In this document: positions 16,575 to 60,507 of the stretch, piece after piece
How the letters are laid out: each line of letters starts with the position of its first letter
How positions within the stretch are numbered: the first letter of the stretch is position 1
IMG/VR virus record: IMGVR_UViG_3300042553_000685
DNA: 64,000 nt
From: a virus
Reading direction: 5' to 3' (one strand)
Notes under the pieces: generated by a model
Told to the model about the DNA's origin: nothing
What the model saw: only the letters and a program-made list of their open reading frames with translations
Databases searched by the model: none
Position numbers and translations under genes: made by a program

Positions 16575-17585
16575 ATGAACGCTACACCACACACAATAAT
16601 ATCTAGACAGGGCGTCGAACAAAATAGAAGACAGTTTAAAGAACAACCCTTCGGGGAAGATTTGGGCAACGACATAACCTTAGAAATGGTTGCTATCCCA
16701 GGGGGAACTTTCCTGATGGGTTCATCGCCAAATGAGAAATATAGTTTTGATGATGAACACCCTCAACATCAAGTAAGTGTCCCACCCTTTTTCATGGGTA
16801 AATACCCCATCACTCAGGCTCAGTGGAAAGAGGTTGCCTCTCGCACAGATTTAAAAGTTGAAAGAGACCTTGATCTCAACCCAGCCTATTTTAAAGACCG
16901 TCCCGATAGTGATCGCCGCCCCGTAGAACAAGTCAACTGGTACGATGCCGTTGAATTTTGTGCGAGATTATCGATACTGACGGGAAGGGAATACCGACTA
17001 CCGAGTGAAGCGGAATGGGAATACGCTTGTCGTGCTGGAACTACTACCCCATTCTACTTTGGGGAAACCATTACAGGGGAATTGGCTAACTATGACGCCA
17101 GCGAAACAACTCCCGTGGGACAATTTACACCCAATGCCTTCGGACTGTACGATATGCACGGCAATGTCTGGGAATGGTGTGCTGATACTTGGCATGATAA
17201 CTATGACGGTGCGCCTAGTGACGGTAGTGTTTGGCTTGATAATAATCAAGAGGAAAATATTGATGGAAAGAGCAGATTCGGCACATATTCTGTCATGCGG
17301 GGCGGTTCTTGGTGCATACATCCGTCTTACTGCCGTTCCGCTTCCCGCAGCAGCCGCGATCGCCGCGACTACTTCAACCTCTACGGTTTTCGGGTAGTCT
17401 GCGTCGACCTTGATCGCGAGGGTGCTGATTCCCCTCGATTTTGGGATAAAGCTGATCGCTTGATGGTGGTGACGGTAGGAGGTGCAGCCCTAGGTGGATC
17501 GATTGCGGGAGTTTACGGTGCGGTTATTGGTGCGATATTAGCGGCGGGCTGCGGATGGTATATTACCTTTAGGAAAGCAAAATGA
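16575..17585 (+). CDS. FGE/SUMF1 (formylglycine-generating-enzyme, C-type-lectin-fold) domain protein with C-terminal Gly-zipper TM segment (336 aa)
   Basis: GGTFLMGS, HQVSVPPFFMGKYPITQAQW, PVEQVNWYDAVEFC, YRLPSEAEWEYACRAGT, FGLYDMHGNVWEWC, RGGSW, CRSA, GFRVV; tail GGAALGGSIAGVYGAVIGAILAAGCGW. Confidence 0.9.
   Translation: MNATPHTIISRQGVEQNRRQFKEQPFGEDLGNDITLEMVAIPGGTFLMGSSPNEKYSFDDEHPQHQVSVPPFFMGKYPITQAQWKEVASRTDLKVERDLDLNPAYFKDRPDSDRRPVEQVNWYDAVEFCARLSILTGREYRLPSEAEWEYACRAGTTTPFYFGETITGELANYDASETTPVGQFTPNAFGLYDMHGNVWEWCADTWHDNYDGAPSDGSVWLDNNQEENIDGKSRFGTYSVMRGGSWCIHPSYCRSASRSSRDRRDYFNLYGFRVVCVDLDREGADSPRFWDKADRLMVVTVGGAALGGSIAGVYGAVIGAILAAGCGWYITFRKAK
17295..17402 (+). other. DGR-variable-region-like 3' segment of FGE gene 1
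   Basis: RGGSW-CIHPSY-CRSA-S-R-SSRD-RR-DYFNLY-GFRVVC: conserved scaffold codons alternate with codons that differ among the three paralogues. Confidence 0.5.
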
Positions 17586-22312: not shown

Positions 22313-22365
22313 AAACCTAACTAATATTATCCAAAATTACTCATGACTTGTGCTATAATAGTTCT

Positions 22366-22974
22366 ATGAGTAAGTTAACCATATCGGAAGCCGCTAAATT
22401 GAAAGGTGTAAGCGTATCGACGTTAAGGCGTTGGGAGTCTGAAGGTAAACTAATTCCAGAACGGACTGCTAATGGGCATCGTCGTTATACAATTTCTCAG
22501 TTGCTTGGTTTAAAAGAGAATCTCTCTTATACTGTTGGCTATTGCCGTGTTTCTAGTCATGACCAAAAGAAGGATTTAGAACGTCAAAAAGAAGTTGTCG
22601 AACTGTTTTGCGCTCAAAACGGTTGGCAAGTTGAAATTATAGACGACCTAGGTTCAGGACTTAACTACAACAAAAAAGGATTAAAGCGATTAATTCGGTT
22701 GATTGTTGATAGTAAAGTAGAGAGATTAGTCTTAACTCATAAGGATAGATTACTTAGATTTGGTAGTGAATTAATCTTTAGTCTGTGTGAGCAATTCGGG
22801 ACTGAAGTTGTCATTATTAATCGAACTGAAGACAGTACATTTGAGGAGGATTTAGCACAAGATGTCTTAGAGATTATTACGGTATTTTCCGCTAGATTGT
22901 ATGGCTCTAGAAGCCATAAAAATAGAAAAATCGTAGAGGAGTTAAGAGACGTTGCTACTAGGATTCAAGACTGA
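22366..22974 (+). CDS. tnpA: IS607-type transposase TnpA (MerR-like HTH + serine recombinase)
   Basis: LTISEAAKLKGVSVSTLRRWESEGKL (HTH) and YCRVSSHDQKKDLERQ (catalytic Ser motif); start at ATG 22366. Confidence 0.9.
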   Translation: MSKLTISEAAKLKGVSVSTLRRWESEGKLIPERTANGHRRYTISQLLGLKENLSYTVGYCRVSSHDQKKDLERQKEVVELFCAQNGWQVEIIDDLGSGLNYNKKGLKRLIRLIVDSKVERLVLTHKDRLLRFGSELIFSLCEQFGTEVVIINRTEDSTFEEDLAQDVLEIITVFSARLYGSRSHKNRKIVEELRDVATRIQD

Positions 22975-24124
22975 GTTAAAACTAAATAATCAACAACGCT
23001 CATTATTAGCCCAACACGCAGGAACCGCACGTCATGCTTGGAATTGGGGTTTGGCTTTAACCAAGCAAATTTTAGACCATAATCAAGCTAACCCTGATGA
23101 AAAAATCAAGTTTCCTACGGCTATTGACCTTCACAAATGGTTGGTAGCATTGGTAAAATCAGAGCATGATTGGTATTATCAAGTGTCTAAATGCGCCCCC
23201 CAATGGGCGTTAAGAGCTTTATCCGATGCTTGGAAAAGATGCTTCAAGAAGATAGCCAAACCACCAAATTTCAAGAAGAAAGGTAAACAGGATAGTTTCA
23301 CTTTAGATGGGAGCATTAAAGTTGCTCATCAAAAGATAAAAGTTCCTGTAATTGGTTGGTTAAAAACTTACGAGCGGCTACCCTATGGATACCAGCCAAA
23401 ATCTGTCACTATTAGTAAAAAAGCTAATAGGTGGTTTATTAGTTTTAAGATGGAAGTTGAACAGCAAACAACCAATAAAACTCATGATGTAGTTGGTTGT
23501 GATCTGGGAATTAAATCTTTAGCTACTTTATCGACAGGGGAGACGTTTGAAGGCTCTAAAAGTTATCGTAAATACGAAAAACAATTAGCCAGACTTCAAT
23601 ACTTGAACCGACATAAGGTAAAAGGTTCAAATAATTGGAACAAAGCCCAACGGCAAATAGCTAAACTTCATTTTAAAATAGCTAATATCCGTAAAGATAC
23701 GTTACATAAACTCACCACTTATTTAGCCAAGAACCACGGCCAGATAGTAATTGAGGATTTAAATGTGTCTGGGATGATGGCTAATCACAAATTAGCTAAA
23801 GCCGTTCAGGATATGGGGTTTTACGAGTTCCGAAGACAACTTGATTATAAAACTCAGTTGTATGGTTCGGAATTAATCATAGCCGATAGGTGGTTTCCTA
23901 GTAGTAAAACCTGTTTTAATTGTGGGTACAAGAAAGAGTCTCTATCTTTAACTGAAAGAGTTTTTGAGTGTGAACAATGCCATGCAGTTTGCGGTCGAGA
24001 CTTGAACGCTAGTCTAAATCTAGCTTCTTTGGCGGTGAGTTCCACCGTGTCAGCTTGTGGAGTAGATAGTGCCGACACTACTACAGTGAAGCAGGAAGTT
24101 AACGTCAAATTTGCTCATGAGTAG
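22952..24124 (+). CDS. tnpB: TnpB (OrfB_IS605, RuvC-like + zinc ribbon) RNA-guided nuclease family
   Basis: GCDLGIKSLATLS, IVIEDLNVSGM, CFNCGYKKESLSLTERVFECEQCHAVCGRDLNASLNL; TTG start overlapping tnpA end. Confidence 0.9.
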   Translation: MLLGFKTELKLNNQQRSLLAQHAGTARHAWNWGLALTKQILDHNQANPDEKIKFPTAIDLHKWLVALVKSEHDWYYQVSKCAPQWALRALSDAWKRCFKKIAKPPNFKKKGKQDSFTLDGSIKVAHQKIKVPVIGWLKTYERLPYGYQPKSVTISKKANRWFISFKMEVEQQTTNKTHDVVGCDLGIKSLATLSTGETFEGSKSYRKYEKQLARLQYLNRHKVKGSNNWNKAQRQIAKLHFKIANIRKDTLHKLTTYLAKNHGQIVIEDLNVSGMMANHKLAKAVQDMGFYEFRRQLDYKTQLYGSELIIADRWFPSSKTCFNCGYKKESLSLTERVFECEQCHAVCGRDLNASLNLASLAVSSTVSACGVDSADTTTVKQEVNVKFAHE

Positions 24125-32089: not shown

Positions 32090-33136
32090 ATGACTTCTAT
32101 TAATTTTTACGAAAGAACGGCGCTTATCAAGCGTATCGAAAACAATCTCAATAAAATTAACCAAAGATATTTTGACAAAAGCCACGTGATATTATCAGTG
32201 ACTGATAACGGTGATTACCTCACTGTTAAAAAACAAGGTGTTTACTTAGCAGATTATGACACTCAAAAGCTTTTTGACGCTCTAGAAAATTTTATTGAAG
32301 AAGTTCGGGAGCTTCTTAGTTTTCCTTACGACCTATGGGACTATTTAGATTATTGCAGGTACACGCCAGAAGATCAAAACTCTGACAACTTAAGCAAATT
32401 AGTTGAGGAACTAGAAACAAAAAATGAAATTCTGGAGAAAAAAAATCAAGAATTAGAACAGAGCAAAGAATACAACGAAGCATGGATTGACAACTTAAAA
32501 CAAAAGGTTCACGATTTAGAATCCTCAGTTTGGCTACTGCAACAGGAAAATAAGCGACTAAAAAATCAATCAGAGTTAGGAGTAAAAATGACAATTACAA
32601 TGGTAAAGATACCAGCAAGTCAAGAAATTAAAAGTTTTAGAATTGGCAAATATCCAGTGACTCAGGAACAGTATCAGGCGGTAATGGGAGTTAATCCTTC
32701 CCATTTTCAAGGCAATCCTCAGAATCCAGTGGAAAGTGTTAGTTATGATGATGCTCAAGCTTTTTGTGAAAAACTAAGTCAGATAACAGGGAAAAATTAT
32801 CGCTTACCCACAGTATCAGAATGGGAGTATGCCTGTCGAGCAGGTACAGTTACTGGGTATTATTTCGGAGATGATTATCATCAGTTAAGAGATTACGCTT
32901 GGTATTTTGATAATTCTCAGGGAACAACCCATCCTGTAGGATTAAAGCTACCCAATGCCTGGGGACTGTACGATATGCACGGTAACGTCTGGGAATGGTG
33001 TCAAAAGGATTTTCATCTGCGGGGCGGTTCCTGGGGCAGCCTTTCTACTTTCTGCCGTTCCGCGTTTCGCTACAGCAGCCTTCGCCGCGACGACCGCACC
33101 GTCGTTAGCGGTTTTCGGGTAGTCTGTGACAATTAG
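32090..33136 (+). CDS. coiled-coil + FGE/SUMF1-domain protein (348 aa)
   Basis: N-terminal heptad-rich region (ELETKNEILEKKNQELEQSKE); C-terminal GKYPVTQEQYQAVMG, PVESVSYDDAQAFC, YRLPTVSEWEYACRAGT, WGLYDMHGNVWEWC, RGGSW, CRSA, GFRVVC. Confidence 0.9.
   Translation: MTSINFYERTALIKRIENNLNKINQRYFDKSHVILSVTDNGDYLTVKKQGVYLADYDTQKLFDALENFIEEVRELLSFPYDLWDYLDYCRYTPEDQNSDNLSKLVEELETKNEILEKKNQELEQSKEYNEAWIDNLKQKVHDLESSVWLLQQENKRLKNQSELGVKMTITMVKIPASQEIKSFRIGKYPVTQEQYQAVMGVNPSHFQGNPQNPVESVSYDDAQAFCEKLSQITGKNYRLPTVSEWEYACRAGTVTGYYFGDDYHQLRDYAWYFDNSQGTTHPVGLKLPNAWGLYDMHGNVWEWCQKDFHLRGGSWGSLSTFCRSAFRYSSLRRDDRTVVSGFRVVCDN
33017..33128 (+). other. DGR-variable-region-like 3' segment of FGE gene 2
   Basis: RGGSW-GSLSTF-CRSA-F-R-YSSL-RR-DDRTVVS-GFRVVC; I count only about 10 adenines in ~110 nt in an otherwise A/T-rich gene. 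Confidence 0.55.
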
Positions 33137-40093: not shown

Positions 40094-40577
40094 GACTGTA
40101 TTGGCGCTGCCCGCCATTAGACAAGATAGAACAGCGTTACCCTTTGTCTTCCCAGAGTTATCCCTCTATACTCTCCTGAGTATAGAAGATGTCATTCCTG
40201 ACATCACTATTAACGTAGTGGCTACTAGTCCGTGGGCCCAGGGCACACACTATGGCACTATGTATTGGACTGTTCTAGTAGTGCGTTATCAGAACAGTCC
40301 CTTCTTAGTAGTGGGCCGTCGTTACGTGACAGATGGGCTTAACCCTAACGAAACGGCCCTCCGCTACGTAATAGACCAGGACCTCTATCGTACGGCTATC
40401 AACTACGCACTACAGCAGGAGACAGAGGAGGTAGTCTTTACTAATAAGGAGCGGCCCCTCGATAAAGAGAAGGCCCAGGCCTTTCATCGCATCGGGAGTG
40501 AGATACGCTTTATAGAGGCTGATGCCCTCAGCTGCACTATTGGGGACATCAATACATTACTTGATATATTATTATGA
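40086..40577 (+). CDS. hypothetical protein (163 aa, TTG start)
   Basis: ORF track; overlaps both neighbours by a few nt. Confidence 0.5.
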   Translation: MLETVLALPAIRQDRTALPFVFPELSLYTLLSIEDVIPDITINVVATSPWAQGTHYGTMYWTVLVVRYQNSPFLVVGRRYVTDGLNPNETALRYVIDQDLYRTAINYALQQETEEVVFTNKERPLDKEKAQAFHRIGSEIRFIEADALSCTIGDINTLLDILL

Positions 40578-41461
40578 AACATTTAGTTAATCCAGATTCA
40601 GTTAAACCGTTGCAAAAGTTAGAATTGTTATCATTTAACTTTGAGGTGGTGCAAGTAAATGAGAAGGGTGAGCAAATTAACAAAGAGTCAAAGCAGTCCC
40701 AATATTTCAGCCAAGATTTAGACAACGACATCACCTTAGAAATGGTTGCCATCCCAGAGGGAACTTTCCTGATGGGTTCACCACAAGACGAAAAAGATAG
40801 TTACGATGATGAACGTCCTCAACATGAGGTTAACGTCCCCACCTTTTTCATGGGCAAGTATCCCATCACCCAAACACAGTGGAGAGCGATTGCCGCAACC
40901 GCTAAAATAGACATCGACCTAGAGACAAACCCTTCTGAATTCAAAGGGGATGAGCTACCCGTAGAAAGTGTCAACTGGTATCAAGCAACGGAATTTTGTA
41001 AACGACTATCAAGAGAAACAAAACGGGAGTATCGACTACCGAGTGAGGCGGAATGGGAGTACGCTTGTCGTGCTGGAACCACCACCCCATTTTACTTTGG
41101 GGAAACCATTACGGGGGAATTGGCTAACTACAATACTAACAAAACCTACGTCGAGGAATATCGAAACGAAACAACTCCCGTGGGACAATTTCCCCCAAAC
41201 GCTTTTGGACTGTACGATATGTACGGCAATGTCTGGGAATGGTGCGCCGATACTTGGCACGATAACTATGACGGGGCGCCGACGGATGGCAGTGCTTGGA
41301 TAGAAAATGGGGATGATAATCGTTCTCCTCTGCGGGGCGGGGCTTGGTACACCTTTCCGTATCGCTGCCGTTCTGCTCACCGCAACATCGACGCCCGCCG
41401 CTACAGCCGCAGCTTCCTTTACGGTTTTCGGGTGGTGTGCAGTGCTGAAAGGACTCTGTAG
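40574..41461 (+). CDS. FGE/SUMF1-domain protein (295 aa), close paralogue of 16575..17585
   Basis: DNDITLEMVAIPEGTFLMGS, HEVNVPTFFMGKYPITQTQW, YRLPSEAEWEYACRAGTTTPFYFGETITGELANY, FGLYDMYGNVWEWCADTWHDNYDGAP, RGGAW, CRSA, GFRVVC; ATGA overlap with upstream backbone gene. Confidence 0.9.
   Translation: MKHLVNPDSVKPLQKLELLSFNFEVVQVNEKGEQINKESKQSQYFSQDLDNDITLEMVAIPEGTFLMGSPQDEKDSYDDERPQHEVNVPTFFMGKYPITQTQWRAIAATAKIDIDLETNPSEFKGDELPVESVNWYQATEFCKRLSRETKREYRLPSEAEWEYACRAGTTTPFYFGETITGELANYNTNKTYVEEYRNETTPVGQFPPNAFGLYDMYGNVWEWCADTWHDNYDGAPTDGSAWIENGDDNRSPLRGGAWYTFPYRCRSAHRNIDARRYSRSFLYGFRVVCSAERTL
41329..41440 (+). other. DGR-variable-region-like 3' segment of FGE gene 3
   Basis: RGGAW-YTFPYR-CRSA-H-R-NIDA-RR-YSRSFLY-GFRVVC; diverges from gene 1 only at the interleaved codons while flanking DNA is roughly 90% identical by eye. 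Confidence 0.5.
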
Positions 41462-43198: not shown

Positions 43199-43312
43199 TA
43201 ACTTATTGTGCAACATTTAACCTTCTTAAACTTATCCATTACCGAGTAAATATATATTAGGTATGGCATCACCAGTAATGGTGAAGGCCATTGCCTGCAA
43301 AGCACAAAGCAT

Positions 43313-43498
43313 ATGAATAATCAAACACCTATCGAGAGTTTCTCTTTAGCGAATATTAAATTTGACTATAATGCAGAACCAATCTGGGAATTAGCGGCTC
43401 GACTTTCTGCTAAAATTCCCAATGAAGAATGGGCAAAACTACCAAAAGATTTAGCCCAAAACTTTGATCATTATCAACAACAACAGGATCAAAAATGA
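43313..43498 (+). CDS. hypothetical protein (61 aa)
   Basis: ORF track; ATGA overlap with downstream antirepressor gene. Confidence 0.5.
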   Translation: MNNQTPIESFSLANIKFDYNAEPIWELAARLSAKIPNEEWAKLPKDLAQNFDHYQQQQDQK

Positions 43499-44307
43499 GA
43501 TGCACCCAGACTCAATTATCTACCTTTAACTTTAACAACCAAGAAATCCGCGTTATAATCATTGATAATGAGCCTTGGTTTATAGCAGCCGACGTTTGCG
43601 CTGTTCTCGAACACACTAATACGTCAGTAGCTCTACTTCGGTTAAAGGTGTATGAAAAACAATTAGTTGACCCTAAACAATACTTAGGGTCAGTCTCAAA
43701 TCAATATATATCAGCCATTTCAGAATCTGGCTTATATAGATTAGTACTCAGCAGCCGCAAACCACAGGCAGAGTTATTTCAAGACTGGGTAGTACAAGAA
43801 GTACTACCTACCATTCGCAAGACTGGCCGCTATTCTGTTAGTGATTTCAAGATACCTACTACTTATGGTGAGGCCTTACTCGAAGCGGGGCGCCTGGCCT
43901 TAGAATTAGAACAAACTAATGCCACCTTAGAACAAGTTAATGCTACCTTAGAAGAACAAGCCCCACTAATTAAATTAGCAGAGACGTTGACAGTCAAAGA
44001 CGTTGATGCTGTCCTAATAGGAGATTTGGCTAAAGCTTATGGTGTAGGTCGTACAACGTTCTTCGATATGTTGCGTGACATTCGCTTTATTATGATGATG
44101 CCAAGTCGGCTACCCTATCAGCGACATGTATTAGCTGCCAGAGCAGAGGTGTTCCGCAAAGAGCGCCTCCATCAACCTGGTATCTTTGATAGCGTTACTG
44201 TTATAACGGCTAAAGGTCAGTTATACATAGCGAAGAAGTTAAAGCAACTAGAATGTGCTAAGTTAGTAGAATCGCAACTAGAAGCCGCGTACGAGCTTGT
44301 AGAATAA
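43495..44307 (+). CDS. phage antirepressor (Bro-N domain + KilAC-like C-terminal domain)
   Basis: FNFNNQEIRVIIIDNEPWFIAADVCAVLEH, SESGLYRLVLSSRKPQAELFQDWVVQEVLPTIRKTGRY (Bro-N); C-terminal LAKAYGVGRTTFFDMLRD. Confidence 0.8.
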   Translation: MRCTQTQLSTFNFNNQEIRVIIIDNEPWFIAADVCAVLEHTNTSVALLRLKVYEKQLVDPKQYLGSVSNQYISAISESGLYRLVLSSRKPQAELFQDWVVQEVLPTIRKTGRYSVSDFKIPTTYGEALLEAGRLALELEQTNATLEQVNATLEEQAPLIKLAETLTVKDVDAVLIGDLAKAYGVGRTTFFDMLRDIRFIMMMPSRLPYQRHVLAARAEVFRKERLHQPGIFDSVTVITAKGQLYIAKKLKQLECAKLVESQLEAAYELVE

Positions 44308-45824: not shown

Positions 45825-47300
45825 GTGAATTATAATTATGATAGTCAATTAGGGCTTGCCTGTATTACTGATACTGAGCGCAATATTAAGGTATTCTGTC
45901 CTGTGGCCCGCCCAGGGCAGAGGTATGAGGCCACTATAGCCTATACTATGGCACGATATTCTCGCAGTGCTGAGTCAGTAGAGAATCTACTCAATGAGGC
46001 GCGGGGAGTAGATGCAGATAAACGTCTTCATAATATATTCTATAATTATGGTCACGGTAGTGTACAGGGCCTGGCCATGTTATCAGTGTGCTTTGAAGGT
46101 ATTCCCCTATGGTTTGCCTTCTATCTGTTCAATACTATGCCTCTAGGAGCAGGGCAGGAACGCAGTACTCGTTATCAGAAGATGGGCGATTACTATAGAG
46201 TCGGTAATGAGTCCTATGACGAGTCAATGGAATATCTATTCAGTGCATATGAGGAACTCTATGAGCCCACTCGAGAGGTATTGGCCCGCGCTTACGACGT
46301 AGACATGAGCGATAAACGCCAGGTACAGGCGCTGGATGCCCGTACGCTGGACTGTACGCGTTATCTATTACCTATGGGAGCCCGCACTAGTCTGGGTATC
46401 ACATCGGATGCCGAGACGTGGAGTCGATTCATCAGTGACCTACTGAGTAATCAAATTAACTCGGGGCCCGATGAGTTATACAGTGCCATTGGGCACATGC
46501 TGAAGCAACTACTGGGTGGTTGTCCTGAGCTAGAGGCCCAGGGCTACGTAGCAGGTGCCCCTGGGCTCATACGTCATGCAGAGGCACGGCATGACCTAAG
46601 CGTTAGTCTAGGTAACATGGCGCGGGCAGCTCAGTCATCTCTCACTGTTAATATGAGAGATGAATATTATCGCTCAAAGCTAGTAATTGTACAGGAGCAA
46701 GACCGCGATATCGTTGGTAACCTCGCCCTATTACTTCAGAATGATGTGTACCGGCCAGCCCTAGTCCTATCTACTGGTAGAAGACTATTAGCTACGCTGC
46801 AAGAGGAGTTGACTACGTGGCGGCATTACGATAGACTACCTACTCAGTTCAATGCCCCGCATATGTACATGAGTGGTTATATGGATGTAGGTGCGGCCCG
46901 CGACTTCAATCGCCATCGCAGTATATGGCGGTACTTTCCTGCTCTAACTAATGTAGAGCTATTACGGGGAGATACTGGTTATACTCTACCACTCTATGTA
47001 GAGCACCTCCCTATAGCTGAGCGTTATAGAGAGGTGCTGGATAAGTATTACGAGACACTAGGCGGCCCTGCTATACAGTACCGTATACCACTAGCCCATA
47101 ATATACGATACTGTATAGGTGGCACACATAAGCATATGGCCTATGTGTGCCAGCTTCGCTCTCGAGTAGGGGGGCATATTAACTATCGTGTGATAGCTAA
47201 TGAGTGGGCCAATAGTATAGCTGAGGTTAATCCACTATTCGACCTTACTCACATCATACGTGTAGTCGAGAATGGCCGAGATGAGTTCCTGAGTCGTTAG
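45825..47300 (+). CDS. thyX: ThyX-like (flavin-dependent thymidylate synthase family) protein, unusually long and degenerate (491 aa, GTG start)
   Basis: TMARYSRS, YGHGSVQGLAML..FEGIP, GQERSTRYQK (S.RY) in the N-terminal half and NRHRSIWRY (RHR) in the C-terminal half. Confidence 0.55.
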   Translation: MNYNYDSQLGLACITDTERNIKVFCPVARPGQRYEATIAYTMARYSRSAESVENLLNEARGVDADKRLHNIFYNYGHGSVQGLAMLSVCFEGIPLWFAFYLFNTMPLGAGQERSTRYQKMGDYYRVGNESYDESMEYLFSAYEELYEPTREVLARAYDVDMSDKRQVQALDARTLDCTRYLLPMGARTSLGITSDAETWSRFISDLLSNQINSGPDELYSAIGHMLKQLLGGCPELEAQGYVAGAPGLIRHAEARHDLSVSLGNMARAAQSSLTVNMRDEYYRSKLVIVQEQDRDIVGNLALLLQNDVYRPALVLSTGRRLLATLQEELTTWRHYDRLPTQFNAPHMYMSGYMDVGAARDFNRHRSIWRYFPALTNVELLRGDTGYTLPLYVEHLPIAERYREVLDKYYETLGGPAIQYRIPLAHNIRYCIGGTHKHMAYVCQLRSRVGGHINYRVIANEWANSIAEVNPLFDLTHIIRVVENGRDEFLSR

Positions 47301-48208
47301 GCCGCGCGTATTATGAATGAGTAGTTGATGCCGATATTAGGCCATATCCAGGATGTTAAATCAGGGACGCTGAAGAGAGTAGTATCAGGACAAAAATCCC
47401 CCCTAGTACCTGTCAACGAGAATAGCAATGGGTATTGCGTCTTGCTGATACACCGCCCATCGCATGGTATCCAATTAGTAGGGTAGCTAGGGACGGGTGA
47501 TTGCATAACAGGCCATATGATTATAGAACCTATTGCAAGGCCCGCCTGGCTGAAGCTATCCGCTATTTTCTGATTAACCCAGTCTACTCGAGCTATACTG
47601 TCATTAGTAGTGGGCGATACAGTACGGGGGTTACCCGTTAGGAAAGGACTATCTATATTAGCCTTAGTGTTCGATAGATTAGTTACTTGTGTCTGTAGAC
47701 TACCTACAGTATTCTGTAATGCTACTATCTTGGGTATCTCTAGATTGAGCTTGTCATTTAAAGCGCTGACTGTGGCATTGATGGTGGCTATCTGAGCAGT
47801 TAGTTGATTACTCAATGTAGTAAATTGAGACTGTAGACCACTGATGGCAGTTGTGTTAGTATCGCAGCATGTCTGTAGGTTCTTAATTATAGTTAGCTCA
47901 CCTACGACAGCAGCTAGGTTATTAATTAGATCATTGACTAACTGCTGTATGTTCTCAATGATCCGCCGTAGCTCACCGTCACCGAATAGATCGTCGCGTA
48001 ATTCCTCTAGTTCATTCTCTAGAGTGGCTATATCAGCCAGCATGTCGGCAATAAACGCAAACGCCCGCACTGTGTCAGATAGATCGTATATAGTATTGGC
48101 GGCCTGTGTTCCCGTATGATTGGCGCGATTAGCAGCCTCTAGAAAGTTATTGTCGAGTTCAGCACAAGTAAGAGGACTTCCCTTACTCACCGATAGTATA
48201 ATTGGCAT
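47297..48208 (-). CDS. tail-fibre protein with coiled-coil shaft and C-terminal phage tail-collar domain (303 aa)
   Basis: Long heptad-rich middle; C-terminal IIWPVMQSPVPSYPTNWIPCDGRCISKTQYPLLFSLTG...FSVPDL matches Phage_Tail_Collar. Confidence 0.75.
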   Translation of the reverse strand: MPIILSVSKGSPLTCAELDNNFLEAANRANHTGTQAANTIYDLSDTVRAFAFIADMLADIATLENELEELRDDLFGDGELRRIIENIQQLVNDLINNLAAVVGELTIIKNLQTCCDTNTTAISGLQSQFTTLSNQLTAQIATINATVSALNDKLNLEIPKIVALQNTVGSLQTQVTNLSNTKANIDSPFLTGNPRTVSPTTNDSIARVDWVNQKIADSFSQAGLAIGSIIIWPVMQSPVPSYPTNWIPCDGRCISKTQYPLLFSLTGTRGDFCPDTTLFSVPDLTSWIWPNIGINYSFIIRAA

Positions 48209-49737: not shown

Positions 49738-50364
49738 ATGAAGTATGTCACGCCGAAAGAGGCCGCCCAAAACCTCGGGGTCAGCGTCTCCTCCCTCAGA
49801 AGGTGGGAAGCTGAAGGAAAAGTCAAAAGCATCCGAACACCCGGAGGGCAACGCCGTTACTGCATTGAAGAGTACGAGTCGGAAGGTAAGTCCATTGTCT
49901 GTTACGCAAGGGTTTCCACCCACGGACAAAAAGACGACCTCGAAAGACAAGCTGAATTTCTACGCTCAAAGTATCCTCGGGCTGAAATTATCACAGAAAT
50001 TGGAAGCGGACTCAATTTTAAACGGAAGCGGTTCCTCTCTATTTTGGAGCGAATATATCAAAGAGATGTCGGCTTGCTTGCCGTTGCCTACCCTGACAGA
50101 CTCGCTCGATTTGGGTTCCCACTTATTGAGTGGATTTGTCAGCAGAGTGAGTGCAAACTCGTGGTTCTCAATGAATCTAAACTCTCTCCCCACGAAGAAC
50201 TCGTTCAAGATATTCTGTCCATCCTCCACTGTTTCTCTACTAGGCTTTACGGATTGCGAAAATACCAAAAGCAAACCGAAAAAGCCCTTCAAGAAGAATC
50301 CCCGCAACAAGTCGAAGAAGGAAAAACCCAACAGTGTCTTGAAGATCAGGGTCTTTCCATCTAG
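49738..50364 (+). CDS. tnpA: IS607-type TnpA (HTH + serine recombinase)
   Basis: VTPKEAAQNLGVSVSSLRRWEAEGKV and CYARVSTHGQKDDLERQ. Confidence 0.9.
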   Translation: MKYVTPKEAAQNLGVSVSSLRRWEAEGKVKSIRTPGGQRRYCIEEYESEGKSIVCYARVSTHGQKDDLERQAEFLRSKYPRAEIITEIGSGLNFKRKRFLSILERIYQRDVGLLAVAYPDRLARFGFPLIEWICQQSECKLVVLNESKLSPHEELVQDILSILHCFSTRLYGLRKYQKQTEKALQEESPQQVEEGKTQQCLEDQGLSI

Positions 50365-51472
50365 GGAGTTGCATCAAGTCTGGAAACAATGGTTGGCAGC
50401 TTATCGATGGATCTACAACCAAACGATTAATTTACTTTGCCAAGGTGCCAAACCTAATATCTATGATATGCAAGCCGAGCTTCGGGATTTAGCCAAGCCC
50501 GAATGGGTTAAAACCTTACCCGGACACCAGTTACAAGAAGCCGTTGCGGATGCTTGTGACGCGCATCGACAGGCTATTGCTAACAAGGGTTCCGCTCACT
50601 TAAAGTCATGCCGAGCAACGTCGCAAGTCATCAAATTCAAGGCGGGAAATTTCAAAAAGGGGACGTGGTATCCTTTACTTACCAAAGGATTATTTTTTAC
50701 GTCCCCCCAAGAAATTCCTTCTCATTGCGATTATGGCACTCAGTTGGTTTACACTCGGCGGCAATGGTTTGCCTGCTTTCCTGTGTTAAAACCAATTGAG
50801 TTGACCAGTGAAAATCGAGTTATTGCTCTAGACCCAGGAGTAAGAACCTTTTTAACTGGTTATGACGGAGAAACTGTTTTAGAAGTTGGCGGGAAAGACA
50901 TCGGAGCAATACATCGTCTTTGCCTGCATCTCGACCAACTCTGCTCTCGGATTAGCACGTCTAAATCAAAACGTCAGCGTTACAAAATGCGTCGGGCCGC
51001 TAGTCAGCTTCGGGGTCGGATTAAAAACTTAATCAAAGACCTTCACGCTAAAACTGCGTCGTTTTTGGTTCAGCATTACAAGCTTATCTTTTTGCCCACT
51101 TTTGAGACGGGCCAAATGGTCTCAAAATCCACCCGGAAGCTCAACAAGAAGTCGGCACGGAATCTCCTAACATGGAGTCACTACCGATTCGCTCAACACT
51201 TACAGCAAACAGCAGATAGGCATGGTGTTTTAGTGATTCGTTGCAACGAGTCCTATACATCCAAAACCTGTCCCGAGTGCGGGCATATTCACGAAAAACT
51301 GGGTGGTTCCAAGGTCTTTAAGTGTCCTCATTGTGGATATCAAGCGCCACGAGATTGGCACGGCGCACGAAATATTATGTTTCGTGCTTTGCAGGCAACA
51401 GCCGTTATCTTTCGAGATGATGCCGTACTTTTTCAAGGTTTGAGTAGCGATACTCAACTTTGTTTAGGTTAA
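50339..51472 (+). CDS. tnpB: TnpB (start uncertain, proposed TTG at 50339)
   Basis: LKIRVFPSRELHQVWKQWLAAYRWIYNQ, ALDPGVRTFLTG, IFLPTFETGQM, CPECGHIHEKLGGSKVFKCPHCGYQAPRDWHGARNI; the track ORF from 49745 is an out-of-frame read-through of tnpA. Confidence 0.8.
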   Translation: MKIRVFPSRELHQVWKQWLAAYRWIYNQTINLLCQGAKPNIYDMQAELRDLAKPEWVKTLPGHQLQEAVADACDAHRQAIANKGSAHLKSCRATSQVIKFKAGNFKKGTWYPLLTKGLFFTSPQEIPSHCDYGTQLVYTRRQWFACFPVLKPIELTSENRVIALDPGVRTFLTGYDGETVLEVGGKDIGAIHRLCLHLDQLCSRISTSKSKRQRYKMRRAASQLRGRIKNLIKDLHAKTASFLVQHYKLIFLPTFETGQMVSKSTRKLNKKSARNLLTWSHYRFAQHLQQTADRHGVLVIRCNESYTSKTCPECGHIHEKLGGSKVFKCPHCGYQAPRDWHGARNIMFRALQATAVIFRDDAVLFQGLSSDTQLCLG

Positions 51473-52184: not shown

Positions 52185-53366
52185 ATGCGAGTCATAGAGT
52201 TTAAGGTTAAAGTTACACAACAACAACAAATAGCTATCTTAGAAGCTATTAGAATAGGACAGTTCATTCGGAATAAGTGCATTAGACTCTGGATGGATTC
52301 TCACAGAGAAGATAAGGTAAATTATGCTTCTTTTTGCAAATTTGTAACAACGTTGAGTAATGATTCAGACACTCCGTTTGTAGGTAATCTTAACTCTATG
52401 GCTCGTCAAGCTAGTGCCGAAAGAGCTTGGTTTGCTATATCTCGTTTCTATGACAATTGTAAGAAAGGTTTAGCTCAAAAAGGCTACCCTAAATTCAAGA
52501 AGTTCTCAAGGTCTGTGGAGTACAAAACTTCTGGCTGGAAACTGTTAGAAGATAAAAAGTCTATCCACATAACAGATAAAACTGGAATTGGTAAGTTAAA
52601 GCTAGTTGGCTCTTATAATCGTGAAATTCTAGATAAGCCCCTAATCAAAAGAGTTAGGCTTATTAAAAGGGCTGACGGATTCTATTGTCAATTTGTCTTA
52701 GACCTTGAACGAGTAGAACTGCTTAATTCTACAGGAAAGGAAGTAGGGATTGATTTAGGTTTAAACCATTTCTTGACCGACTCTAATGGGGATAAAATTG
52801 ATAACCCTCGTTTCCTCCGTAAAGCCGAAAAACGACTGAAAAAGGCACAGCGTAAACTCTCCAAAAAGAAAAAGGGAAGCCAAAAAAGGTTAAAGCAGAA
52901 ATCTAAAGTAGCCCGCCTTCATTTAAAAGTTTCTAGACAACGTAAAGATTTTGCCGTTAAGACAGCAAAAGCGTTAATCCAATCTAACGATTTGGTAGTC
53001 TATGAGGATTTGAAGGTTTCTAATATGGTGAAAAACAGAAAACTTGCGAAATCAATTTCTGATGCAAGTTGGTCAATGTTCACCGATTGGTTAGACTACT
53101 TTGGAAAAATACACGGGAAGTTTGTGGTAGCGGTAAATCCACAATATACAAGTCAAGAGTGTTCTAATTGTGGTTCGATTGTCAAGAAAACATTGTCTGT
53201 AAGAACTCATATATGTTCTTGTGGTTGTGTTCTGGACAGAGATGAAAATGCCGCTATCAACATACTTCAAAAAGCAAGTACTGTCGGGCGGACAGAAATT
53301 CAAGCCCTCGGACAGACTACCCACTGTCTATTAGGTGAAAGCTTAATAGATAAGGTAACTGGATGA
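52185..53366 (+). CDS. tnpB: TnpB (IS605 OrfB family)
   Basis: GIDLGLNHFLTDS, VVYEDLKVSNM, NPQYTSQECSNCGSIVKKTLSVRTHICSCGCVLDRDENAAINI. Confidence 0.9.
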   Translation: MRVIEFKVKVTQQQQIAILEAIRIGQFIRNKCIRLWMDSHREDKVNYASFCKFVTTLSNDSDTPFVGNLNSMARQASAERAWFAISRFYDNCKKGLAQKGYPKFKKFSRSVEYKTSGWKLLEDKKSIHITDKTGIGKLKLVGSYNREILDKPLIKRVRLIKRADGFYCQFVLDLERVELLNSTGKEVGIDLGLNHFLTDSNGDKIDNPRFLRKAEKRLKKAQRKLSKKKKGSQKRLKQKSKVARLHLKVSRQRKDFAVKTAKALIQSNDLVVYEDLKVSNMVKNRKLAKSISDASWSMFTDWLDYFGKIHGKFVVAVNPQYTSQECSNCGSIVKKTLSVRTHICSCGCVLDRDENAAINILQKASTVGRTEIQALGQTTHCLLGESLIDKVTG

Positions 53367-56990: not shown

Positions 56991-57947
56991 ATGAAACTTA
57001 AAGGCAGTATTCGGTTATTTTTAGAAGGTTCAGAAGATGGATTCCAGCACCTAACAGATTTACATCAATCAGGGGAATTGCAGGCCCTCCTCAATGAACT
57101 TAAATCAGGAGTCGAGTTCACTACAGATGCAAAAGTTATTGAAAAAGTCGAATTAATTAAGGCAATTCGAGAAGGAACAATAGATAAAACAACTCTACAA
57201 CAAGTTAATTTGAGTGGGGCTGATCTGAGTGGGGCTGACCTGAGTGAGGCTGACCTGAGTGGAGCTTTCCTGAGAGAGGCTAACCTAAGTGGGGTTAACC
57301 TGAGTGGGGCTTACCTGAGTAGGGCTACTCTAAGTGGGGCTAACCTGAGTGGGGTTAACCTGAGTGGGGCTAACCTGAGTGGGGCTTACCTGAGTAAAGC
57401 TGACCTGAGTGGGGCTTACCTGAGTAAAGCTGACCTGAGGGGGGCTTTCCTAAGGGGGACTAACTTGAGAGAGGCTACTTTGAGTGAGGCTGACCTGAGT
57501 GGGGCTTGCCTGAGTGGGGCTGATCTGAGTGAGGCTTGCCTGAGTGGGGCTGATCTGAGTGAGGCTGACCTGAAGGGGGCTTTCCTAAGGGGGACTTACC
57601 TGAGAGAGGCTAACCTGAGTGGGGCTAACCTGAGTGGGGCTTGCCTGAGTGGGGCTGATCTGAGTGAGGCTTGCCTGAGTGGGGCTGATCTGAGTGAGGC
57701 TGACCTGAAGGGGGCTTTCCTAAGGGGGACTTACCTGAGAGAGGCTAACCTGAGTGGGGCTAACCTGAGTGGGGCTATTCTGAGTGGGGCTATTCTGAGA
57801 GGGGCTATCCTGAGAGAGGCTAACCTGAGAAGGGCTAACCTGAGAAGGGCTAACGTTAAAAACGCTATTTTTCCCGATGCAACGGGTATCACCCCTGAAC
57901 AAAAACAGGATTTAATTCGACGAGGGGCAATTTTTGCAGAGATTTAA
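56991..57947 (+). CDS. pentapeptide-repeat protein (318 aa)
   Basis: About 40 consecutive A(D/N)L(S/R)xA-type pentapeptides; N-domain shared with 34840 gene. Confidence 0.9.
   Translation: MKLKGSIRLFLEGSEDGFQHLTDLHQSGELQALLNELKSGVEFTTDAKVIEKVELIKAIREGTIDKTTLQQVNLSGADLSGADLSEADLSGAFLREANLSGVNLSGAYLSRATLSGANLSGVNLSGANLSGAYLSKADLSGAYLSKADLRGAFLRGTNLREATLSEADLSGACLSGADLSEACLSGADLSEADLKGAFLRGTYLREANLSGANLSGACLSGADLSEACLSGADLSEADLKGAFLRGTYLREANLSGANLSGAILSGAILRGAILREANLRRANLRRANVKNAIFPDATGITPEQKQDLIRRGAIFAEI
57501..57770 (+). repeat. perfect 135-bp tandem duplication inside the pentapeptide gene
   Basis: 57501-57635 and 57636-57770 read identically (45 codons each). Confidence 0.85.
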
Positions 57948-59448: not shown

Positions 59449-60507
59449 ATGGCTAAGAATGAGATATCAGAGCAACTTAAGCTTGCTCGAAAGCTAGATA
59501 CTGAGCTTAGAGCAAAGTGTTCTAATTACATGGGGGGCCTTGGCTCTACTAGTTCTATCGAGCCTACTACTTTTATACCCAGTGGTATATTCTCATTGGA
59601 CTATGTATTAGGAGGTGGGTGGCCCGTAGGTAAAATAGTAGAGATTGCAGGTGAGACTAGTGTGGGTAAGACCACACTTATGAAACAGTGCGTTAGTCTA
59701 TTACAGGCTAAGGGATACATGGCAGCGTGGTTAGATCACGAGAAGTCATTCGAGGTTGGTTATGCTCGGATGATGGGTATGAAGATGGACCAGATAGCCA
59801 TGTTCCGCCCCGATACAGGAGAGGAGGGTATGGATAGTCTTATTACTCTATTAGACAGTGGTCTAGTCAAGATAGTCGTTATTGATTCAGTAGCGAATAT
59901 GATAGGGGCTGTTGAGATGGAGAAGGGCTCTGCTGATGCTACTGTTGCTCAATTGGCCCGCCTGCTTAGTAAGAAACTACCTCAAGTAGTTAATGCTGCT
60001 AATAAGACTGGTGCTATCGTAGTGTTGATTAATCAGTATCGCACTAAGGTAGGTAGTTATGGGGCCCCCGTCGGCTCCACTGGTGGTAAGGCCCTGGCCT
60101 ATAATGCTGCCGTACAACTGCGGCTAGGACGAGGAGATCCCCTTAAACAGCGGGGCGTTATAACTGGTATGACTATTACAGTCAAGAACACTAAGAATAG
60201 AGTAGCTATTCCCTTTCGTGAGGCAGAGTTAGATTTACTATTACCCTATACAGGCCCCAATGGGGATCTACTGGCGGGCGTGGATCTAGTGGGCGACATT
60301 GTACGTCAGGCTGTTAAGACTGGTATAGTTACTCGTAGTGGGGCCTTCTATACCCTACCTGATGGTTCTAAGTTCCAGGGCCTAGCAGCAGTTCGTGCTG
60401 GTATTAACCAGAGTATGCTAGATTCTATTTACAGTCAGTTGTCGGAGTACCAAGACAACGCAGCAGGTGATGACACCAAAGAAACAATTAACGACGAGCA
60501 TGTATGA
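59449..60507 (+). CDS. recA: RecA-family recombinase
   Basis: IVEIAGETSVGKTTLMKQ (Walker A), VVIDSVANM (Walker B), LINQYRTKVGSYGAPVGSTGGKALAYNAAVQLRLGRG parallels E. coli RecA FINQIRMKIG...TTGGNALKFYASVRLDIRR. Confidence 0.9.
   Translation: MAKNEISEQLKLARKLDTELRAKCSNYMGGLGSTSSIEPTTFIPSGIFSLDYVLGGGWPVGKIVEIAGETSVGKTTLMKQCVSLLQAKGYMAAWLDHEKSFEVGYARMMGMKMDQIAMFRPDTGEEGMDSLITLLDSGLVKIVVIDSVANMIGAVEMEKGSADATVAQLARLLSKKLPQVVNAANKTGAIVVLINQYRTKVGSYGAPVGSTGGKALAYNAAVQLRLGRGDPLKQRGVITGMTITVKNTKNRVAIPFREAELDLLLPYTGPNGDLLAGVDLVGDIVRQAVKTGIVTRSGAFYTLPDGSKFQGLAAVRAGINQSMLDSIYSQLSEYQDNAAGDDTKETINDEHV

Follow-up and report, generated by a model that had tools for sequence, protein, structure and literature searches.

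Lectin-fold FGE-sulfatase genes of a Microcystis myophage end in variable regions that match the template of a diversity-generating retroelement of the host

The window analysed here is a stretch of 64,000 nucleotides of viral DNA (IMG/VR record IMGVR_UViG_3300042553_000685), which is identified by megablast as belonging to a Microcystis myophage of the genus Fukuivirus. It is similar to Ma-LMM01 and MaMV-DC, sharing ~91% identity across most of 24 kb with Ma-LMM01, MaMV-DC and MaMV-DL01/DL02/CH01/CH02/DH01. The freshwater blooms formed by Microcystis are toxic, and phages of this genus are under study as a means to control them. According to Pfam, three plus-strand genes of the window (A, B and C) encode the FGE-sulfatase domain (PF03781) with its C-type-lectin-like fold, and each of them contains a variable region:

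16575..17585, plus strand: gene A, FGE-sulfatase (C-type-lectin-like), 336 aa, seen as an ORF with PF03781 at residues 37-275 (E 9e-56)
17298..17402, plus strand: variable region of gene A, 35 codons, RGGSW...GFRVVC, based on codon layout and the match to the Microcystis template TR_G007
17403..17585, plus strand: hydrophobic C-terminal tail of gene A, 3' of the variable region, with the translation GGAALGGSIAGVYGAVIGAILAAGCGWYITFRKAK
32090..33136, plus strand: gene B, FGE-sulfatase, 348 aa, with the FGE domain at residues 175-345 (Pfam E 1.9e-36)
33020..33127, plus strand: variable region of gene B, based on codon layout and the match to the host template TR_G016
40574..41461, plus strand: gene C, FGE-sulfatase, 295 aa (Pfam E 6.5e-59)
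41333..41440, plus strand: variable region of gene C, based on codon layout and the match to the host template TR_G006

Two ORFs overlapping gene A (16998-17321, minus strand; 17005-17397, plus strand) are probably not genes. Orthologues and paralogues of the FGE genes are found in Ma-LMM01, MaMV-DC and MaMV-DL01, among them LMM01 gp037 and MaMV-DC gp040 as orthologues of gene B, while gene C shares 99% identity with an IMG/VR contig (L133) carrying an identical variable region. In MaMV-DL01, three FGE paralogues (45L, 46L and 47L) lie in tandem with one variable region apiece, where the scaffold of 46L is interrupted by indels and that of 47L reads RSGSW/GFRVAE. A 42-bp tandem repeat array of ~7 copies (Ma-LMM01 43271-43551) adjoins the FGE orthologue gp062/gp063.

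All three variable regions are C-terminal and share the arrangement RGG[SA]W - six variable codons - CRSA - x - R - variable block - GFRVVC, in which a constant scaffold (RGG.W, CRSA, R, RR, GFRVVC) is interleaved with variable blocks. The variable codons are mostly NNC or NNT, with the variation at the first two codon positions. A variable region placed at the 3' end of a gene with a C-type-lectin/FGE domain is what is expected of a target of a diversity-generating retroelement (DGR), and the proposal of an initial annotation that all three FGE genes end in DGR-type variable regions is confirmed by the codon layout, by the match to a host template repeat (TR) and by the differences at adenine sites described below. 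The three aligned protein strings given there are correct, and the interval 17295-17402 proposed for gene A has the right end but starts one codon early, the true start being 17298. Gene A lacks one Asn codon of the template in its variable region, while its relatives are full length.

An alignment of 11 such phage proteins shows highly conserved bodies and a hypervariable segment that runs from RGGSW to GFRV. Two orthologues, LMM01 gp062 and MaMV-DC gp063, were compared codon by codon; codon positions 1/2/3 differ at 10/5/19 sites over the 170 codons of the body and at 9/8/4 sites over the 25 codons of the variable region. The difference rate is thus 28% in the variable region versus 6.7% in the body (Fisher p = 3.6e-7), and the codon-position pattern of the variable region is the reverse of that of the body (p = 0.011), which, as read from these sequences, is the signature expected of adenine mutagenesis. 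The fixed third positions that had been taken to indicate mutagenesis of template adenines only are borne out both by this pair and by near-identical genes differing on TR adenines.

None of the machinery of a DGR is found with these genes. A gapless adenine-tolerant scan with all three variable regions detected no TR in the window, and no reverse transcriptase (RT) or Avd is present among the ORFs checked, which encode TnpB, a resolvase and others instead, so that the earlier statement that the window lacks TR, RT and Avd holds. Several TnpB/IS605-IS607 elements are present in the window, and the annotated genes outside the FGE loci include:

22348-24124, plus strand: IS607-type element, serine resolvase with TnpB
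45825-47300, plus strand: ThyX
47297-48208, minus strand: tail-collar-domain protein
49745-51472, plus strand: TnpB RNA-guided endonuclease gene
52185-53366, plus strand: a further TnpB RNA-guided endonuclease gene
56991-57947, plus strand: pentapeptide-repeat protein
59449-60507, plus strand: RecA

The complete genomes of MaMV-DL01, Ma-LMM01 and MaMV-DC contain neither RVT_1 nor Avd, and a 107-kb virus fragment (G001) is likewise devoid of RVT_1; in these genomes and the fragment the only copies of the TR scaffold are the known variable regions. Nor does the TR core occur in any of the 2.9 million virus contigs of IMG/VR. A phage-encoded DGR of the BPP-1 type, comprising RT, Avd and TR, is therefore lacking in the three complete relatives, and the cognate RT and Avd are located in the host rather than in the genome of their putative phage targets, with which they would share a cell only during infection.

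A degenerate pattern made from the phage scaffold was used to scan 17 Microcystis genomes from GTDB, each of which contains 1-8 FGE variable regions. TRs rich in Asn codons were detected in G006, G007, G015 and G016, and these are exactly the four of the 17 genomes that hold the TR core. A DGR cassette comprising RT, Avd, TR and FGE target genes is present in G015, G016 and G006, while G007 also has the TR. The view of the initial annotation, in which the FGE genes are remote targets of a DGR located in another part of the phage genome or in the host, is thus supported. The search that it proposed for a template in both succeeded in the host, where the Microcystis TR is accompanied by RT and Avd, and failed in the phage (the three complete relatives and IMG/VR). 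The host RT is a protein of 352 aa with an RVT_1 domain, whose best NCBIfam match, a group II RT, is non-specific, and the Avd proteins (113-117 aa) match NCBIfam DivGenRetAVD (E 2.7e-39) and Pfam bAvd (E 4.6e-22). The template encodes RGGSW-(G/Y)NNPNN-CRSA-YRNNNNRRDNRNNNN-GFRVV, and host variable regions show 0 non-adenine mismatches to their cognate TR. The TRs (L129-L132) vary between Microcystis strains at several positions, chiefly in the 3' tail (G006/G007 versus G015/G016). A further TR-like sequence in G015 (C132:30922-30956), with 2 mismatches to the TR core, suggests that this genome may hold a second TR or DGR copy. The sole RT of the Microcystis MAG G002 was rejected as a DGR RT, as it is of the group-II-intron type with an HNH domain and has no nearby TR. 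In G012 there are ~24 RVT_1 matches, mostly group II intron RTs of ~600 aa.

In GTDB genomes, gene C is related mostly to FGE proteins of cyanobacteria, and several of these loci contain a TR and a variable region that agree over 96 nt at every non-adenine site (Anabaena, Oculatellaceae, Synechococcales, a cyanobacterial MAG and Cytophagia). The C-terminal layout RGGSW...CRSA...GFR is thus a recurrent target of cyanobacterial DGRs, in line with the initial annotation, and DGRs with lectin-domain targets and remote targets have been described in cyanobacteria by Vallota-Eastman et al. 2020 (PMC7517822).

The phage variable regions match the Microcystis template closely outside its adenines, with 0-4 non-adenine mismatches to a real TR for several of them, as is characteristic of DGR targets. 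Two IMG/VR relatives of gene A (L147 and L149) show 0 non-adenine mismatches over 111 nt, the variable region of Ma-LMM01 shows 3 over 111 nt, that of gene B shows 4 over 111 nt (to TR_G016, where shuffled TRs give at least 18), and that of gene A shows 4 when one 3-nt gap is allowed (to TR_G007). Against TR_G006, the variable region of gene C has 6 non-adenine mismatches in its core, rising to 11 over 125 nt (permutation p < 0.0005). As a control, the codons of the TR variable blocks were permuted 2,000 times, and the shuffled TRs matched the phage variable regions with a minimum of 17-20 mismatches. Since this is far worse than the real TR, the match between phage and host TR is position-specific and not a matter of composition, and coincidence of codon usage is ruled out as its cause. 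The bodies of the phage lectins share only ~55-60% protein identity with the host target proteins, and the near-template variable regions must therefore be much younger than the bodies and have been rewritten repeatedly. The phage variable regions also have a GC-rich GGTTTTCGGGTAGTCTGC end in common with the host TR. However, the last ~15 nt of the 3' homology between host TR and host variable regions are absent from the phage, and these may contain the IMH-type priming site. The homing competence of the phage variable regions is thus uncertain, and this is the main weak point of a model of homing in trans.

Diversification continues in natural populations. IMG/VR relatives of gene A with the same hydrophobic tail differ from it at 2-3 of 738 nt in the body and at 22-29 positions in the variable region. 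Among phage genes that are 99.3-99.7% identical in the body, the differences in the variable region fall mostly on TR adenines, at codon positions 1-2 (of AAY), as is typical of DGR targets. The contigs L148 and L150, with 0.7% body divergence, differ in the variable region at 13 first and second codon positions, of which 11 are on TR adenines where 27% would be expected (binomial p = 2.5e-5); between L148 and L149 all 11 of 11 differences are on TR adenines, and pairwise binomial p values go down to 5.6e-7. Gene A is present in 20 lake-water metagenome runs, and in Logan contigs from two of them (X5 and X9) its body differs at 1-2 sites over ~580 nt, while the core from 17313/17316 to 17383/17384 is swapped for 69-74 different letters. 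As the same body occurs with different variable regions both in IMG/VR and in the lake contigs, the variable regions keep changing while the surrounding genes are fixed. The hypervariation at these codons that had been suggested as a check on the DGR reading is therefore found in both data sets.

Given the template match and the distribution of differences on its adenines, the host DGR is very probably the source of the diversity of the phage variable regions. How this diversity reaches the phage is less certain. The phage genes may be remote targets of the Microcystis DGR, most likely rewritten directly in phage DNA during infection, a reading that we favour over its rivals but consider evenly poised between acceptance and rejection; the more general statement, that a cellular DGR writes hypermutated lectin variable regions directly into infecting phage genomes, is put forward slightly more tentatively still. 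In this mechanism the host DGR (RT, Avd and TR), which diversifies the host's own FGE/C-type-lectin genes, could use the phage lectin genes as targets because their 3' ends carry the same short scaffold. The TR RNA of the host would be reverse-transcribed by the host RT and Avd with errors at adenines, in an infected cell this mutagenized cDNA would be written in trans into the variable region of the phage gene, which is the inferred step, and the progeny phages would receive new lectin variants. Action in trans on phage DNA is mechanistically possible, as an engineered BPP-1 DGR can act in trans to diversify a gene of a replicating phage, with only 3' elements (IMH and hairpin) being required for target recognition in that DGR (PMC3240598). 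Apart from the missing 3' homology, direct homing in trans is opposed by the presence of the TR in only 4 of the 17 Microcystis genomes, by sequence common to the gene-A lineage and a host target gene that extends upstream of the 5' boundary of the TR, and by the one-codon deletion in the variable region of gene A, an indel which adenine mutagenesis cannot make.

The same upstream sequence gives some support to capture by recombination, in which the host DGR would diversify host genes only and the phage would take its variable regions from host variable-protein genes by homologous recombination. This would use the common scaffold flanks of ~15-20 nt and, for gene A, the longer upstream block: the gene-A lineage shares with the host gene G016b a block of ~50 nt and a 'ATTCTGTCATGCGGGGCGG' junction upstream of the TR boundary. 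The phage also encodes a RecA (59449-60507), and the 3' tail of gene C (to 41461) is similar to the 3' tails of the host TR and variable region of G006. Nevertheless, no phage variable region is identical to any host one in the genomes examined, the flanks in common with host genes are short, and the exact variable-region core of gene A has no match in JGI metagenomes, a result that weighs against capture in one reading and is neutral on a shared host allele in another. Capture is accordingly rated as rather unlikely, though the main competitor. It is still less probable that a DGR with a near-identical TR on some other element, such as a phage, satellite or plasmid co-infecting Microcystis, writes the phage variable regions. 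More than 100 kb of the phage genome lies outside the 64-kb window and could accommodate such a DGR, but the TR is located in Microcystis genomes, its core is absent from IMG/VR, and MaMV-DL01, Ma-LMM01 and MaMV-DC contain no RVT_1, Avd or extra TR copy. A single acquisition of host-diversified genes followed by neutral divergence of the variable regions would agree with phage lectin bodies that are old and divergent from the host genes. It fails to explain variable regions that are near-template despite ~40% protein divergence of the bodies, and near-identical phage genes that differ mostly in the variable region, at TR adenines. This explanation is highly improbable and is refuted by the population data, and the option that the genes are fossils of a DGR, which the initial annotation had left standing, is rejected because phage genomes that are near-identical continue to differ in these regions.

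The known DGRs occur in phages that bear the cassette themselves and in bacteria that use it on genes of their own. Mtd of Bordetella phage BPP-1 resembles the proteins described here in being phage-encoded, in its lectin fold and in its adenine-mutagenized variable region, but BPP-1 has its own RT, Avd and TR, whereas the Microcystis phage has none of them and the template is host-encoded. The cyanobacterial lectin/FGE targets described previously (PMC7517822) likewise have a C-terminal variable region with non-adenine homology to the TR and include remote targets without a nearby RT, and their DGRs have an RT of the same cyanobacterial clade with Avd as the Microcystis DGR; those targets sit in the cyanobacterial genome, whereas here a lytic phage that lacks such machinery encodes them and the host carries the template. 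Trans-acting DGRs of Thiohalocapsa PB-PSB1 (bioRxiv 10.1101/2023.09.22.558884) show a distant TR that is matched at all non-adenine sites and a target diversified in trans, but inside one genome, while the action proposed here would start in the genome of a host and reach that of a virus. Lectin targets and remote targets of DGRs in cyanobacteria, as well as action in trans inside a single genome, are already known, and lectin genes of a lytic phage that are apparently templated and renewed by a host DGR, with no machinery of their own, are not described in the literature searched.

A host DGR template as the source of the diversity of virus genes would extend the trans action of DGRs across the host-virus boundary. 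If the proposed mechanism is true, lytic cyanophages use, or undergo, the targeted hypermutation of their host and thereby obtain diverse lectin proteins. A cellular hypermutation system may thus help to make variants of a phage protein, which bears on the arms races between hosts and phages.

In TvpA of Treponema denticola, itself the target of a DGR, the variable region occupies the C-terminal portion of a lectin-like fold, and its variable residues are reported as a ligand-binding surface. The closest solved relatives of gene A in a phmmer search of the PDB are PvdO, FGE enzymes and TvpA, the last of which (PDB 2y3c) is matched at residues 136-276, variable region included, with an E value of 3e-20, a sequence match that supports the analogy drawn earlier between the phage proteins and TvpA. 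Gene A resembles TvpA in its FGE-like C-type-lectin fold and C-terminal variable region, but the DGR of TvpA is in its own genome, while the protein of gene A belongs to a phage and its template to another organism. The structures of its homologues TvpA and FGE place the phage variable region in the same C-terminal segment of the lectin fold that is variable in TvpA, and by homology a binding surface that varies is probably made up of its variable residues. A role as antigen sensors within defence systems has recently been proposed for lectins diversified by cyanobacterial DGRs (Doré et al., bioRxiv 2023), which adds to the relevance for arms races, and it may be speculated that the phage lectins engage or mimic these DGR-diversified sensor proteins of the host. 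The hydrophobic tail of gene A is retained in its IMG/VR relatives (L147-L150) and absent from the host variable proteins, and, as judged from its translation, is possibly a membrane anchor.
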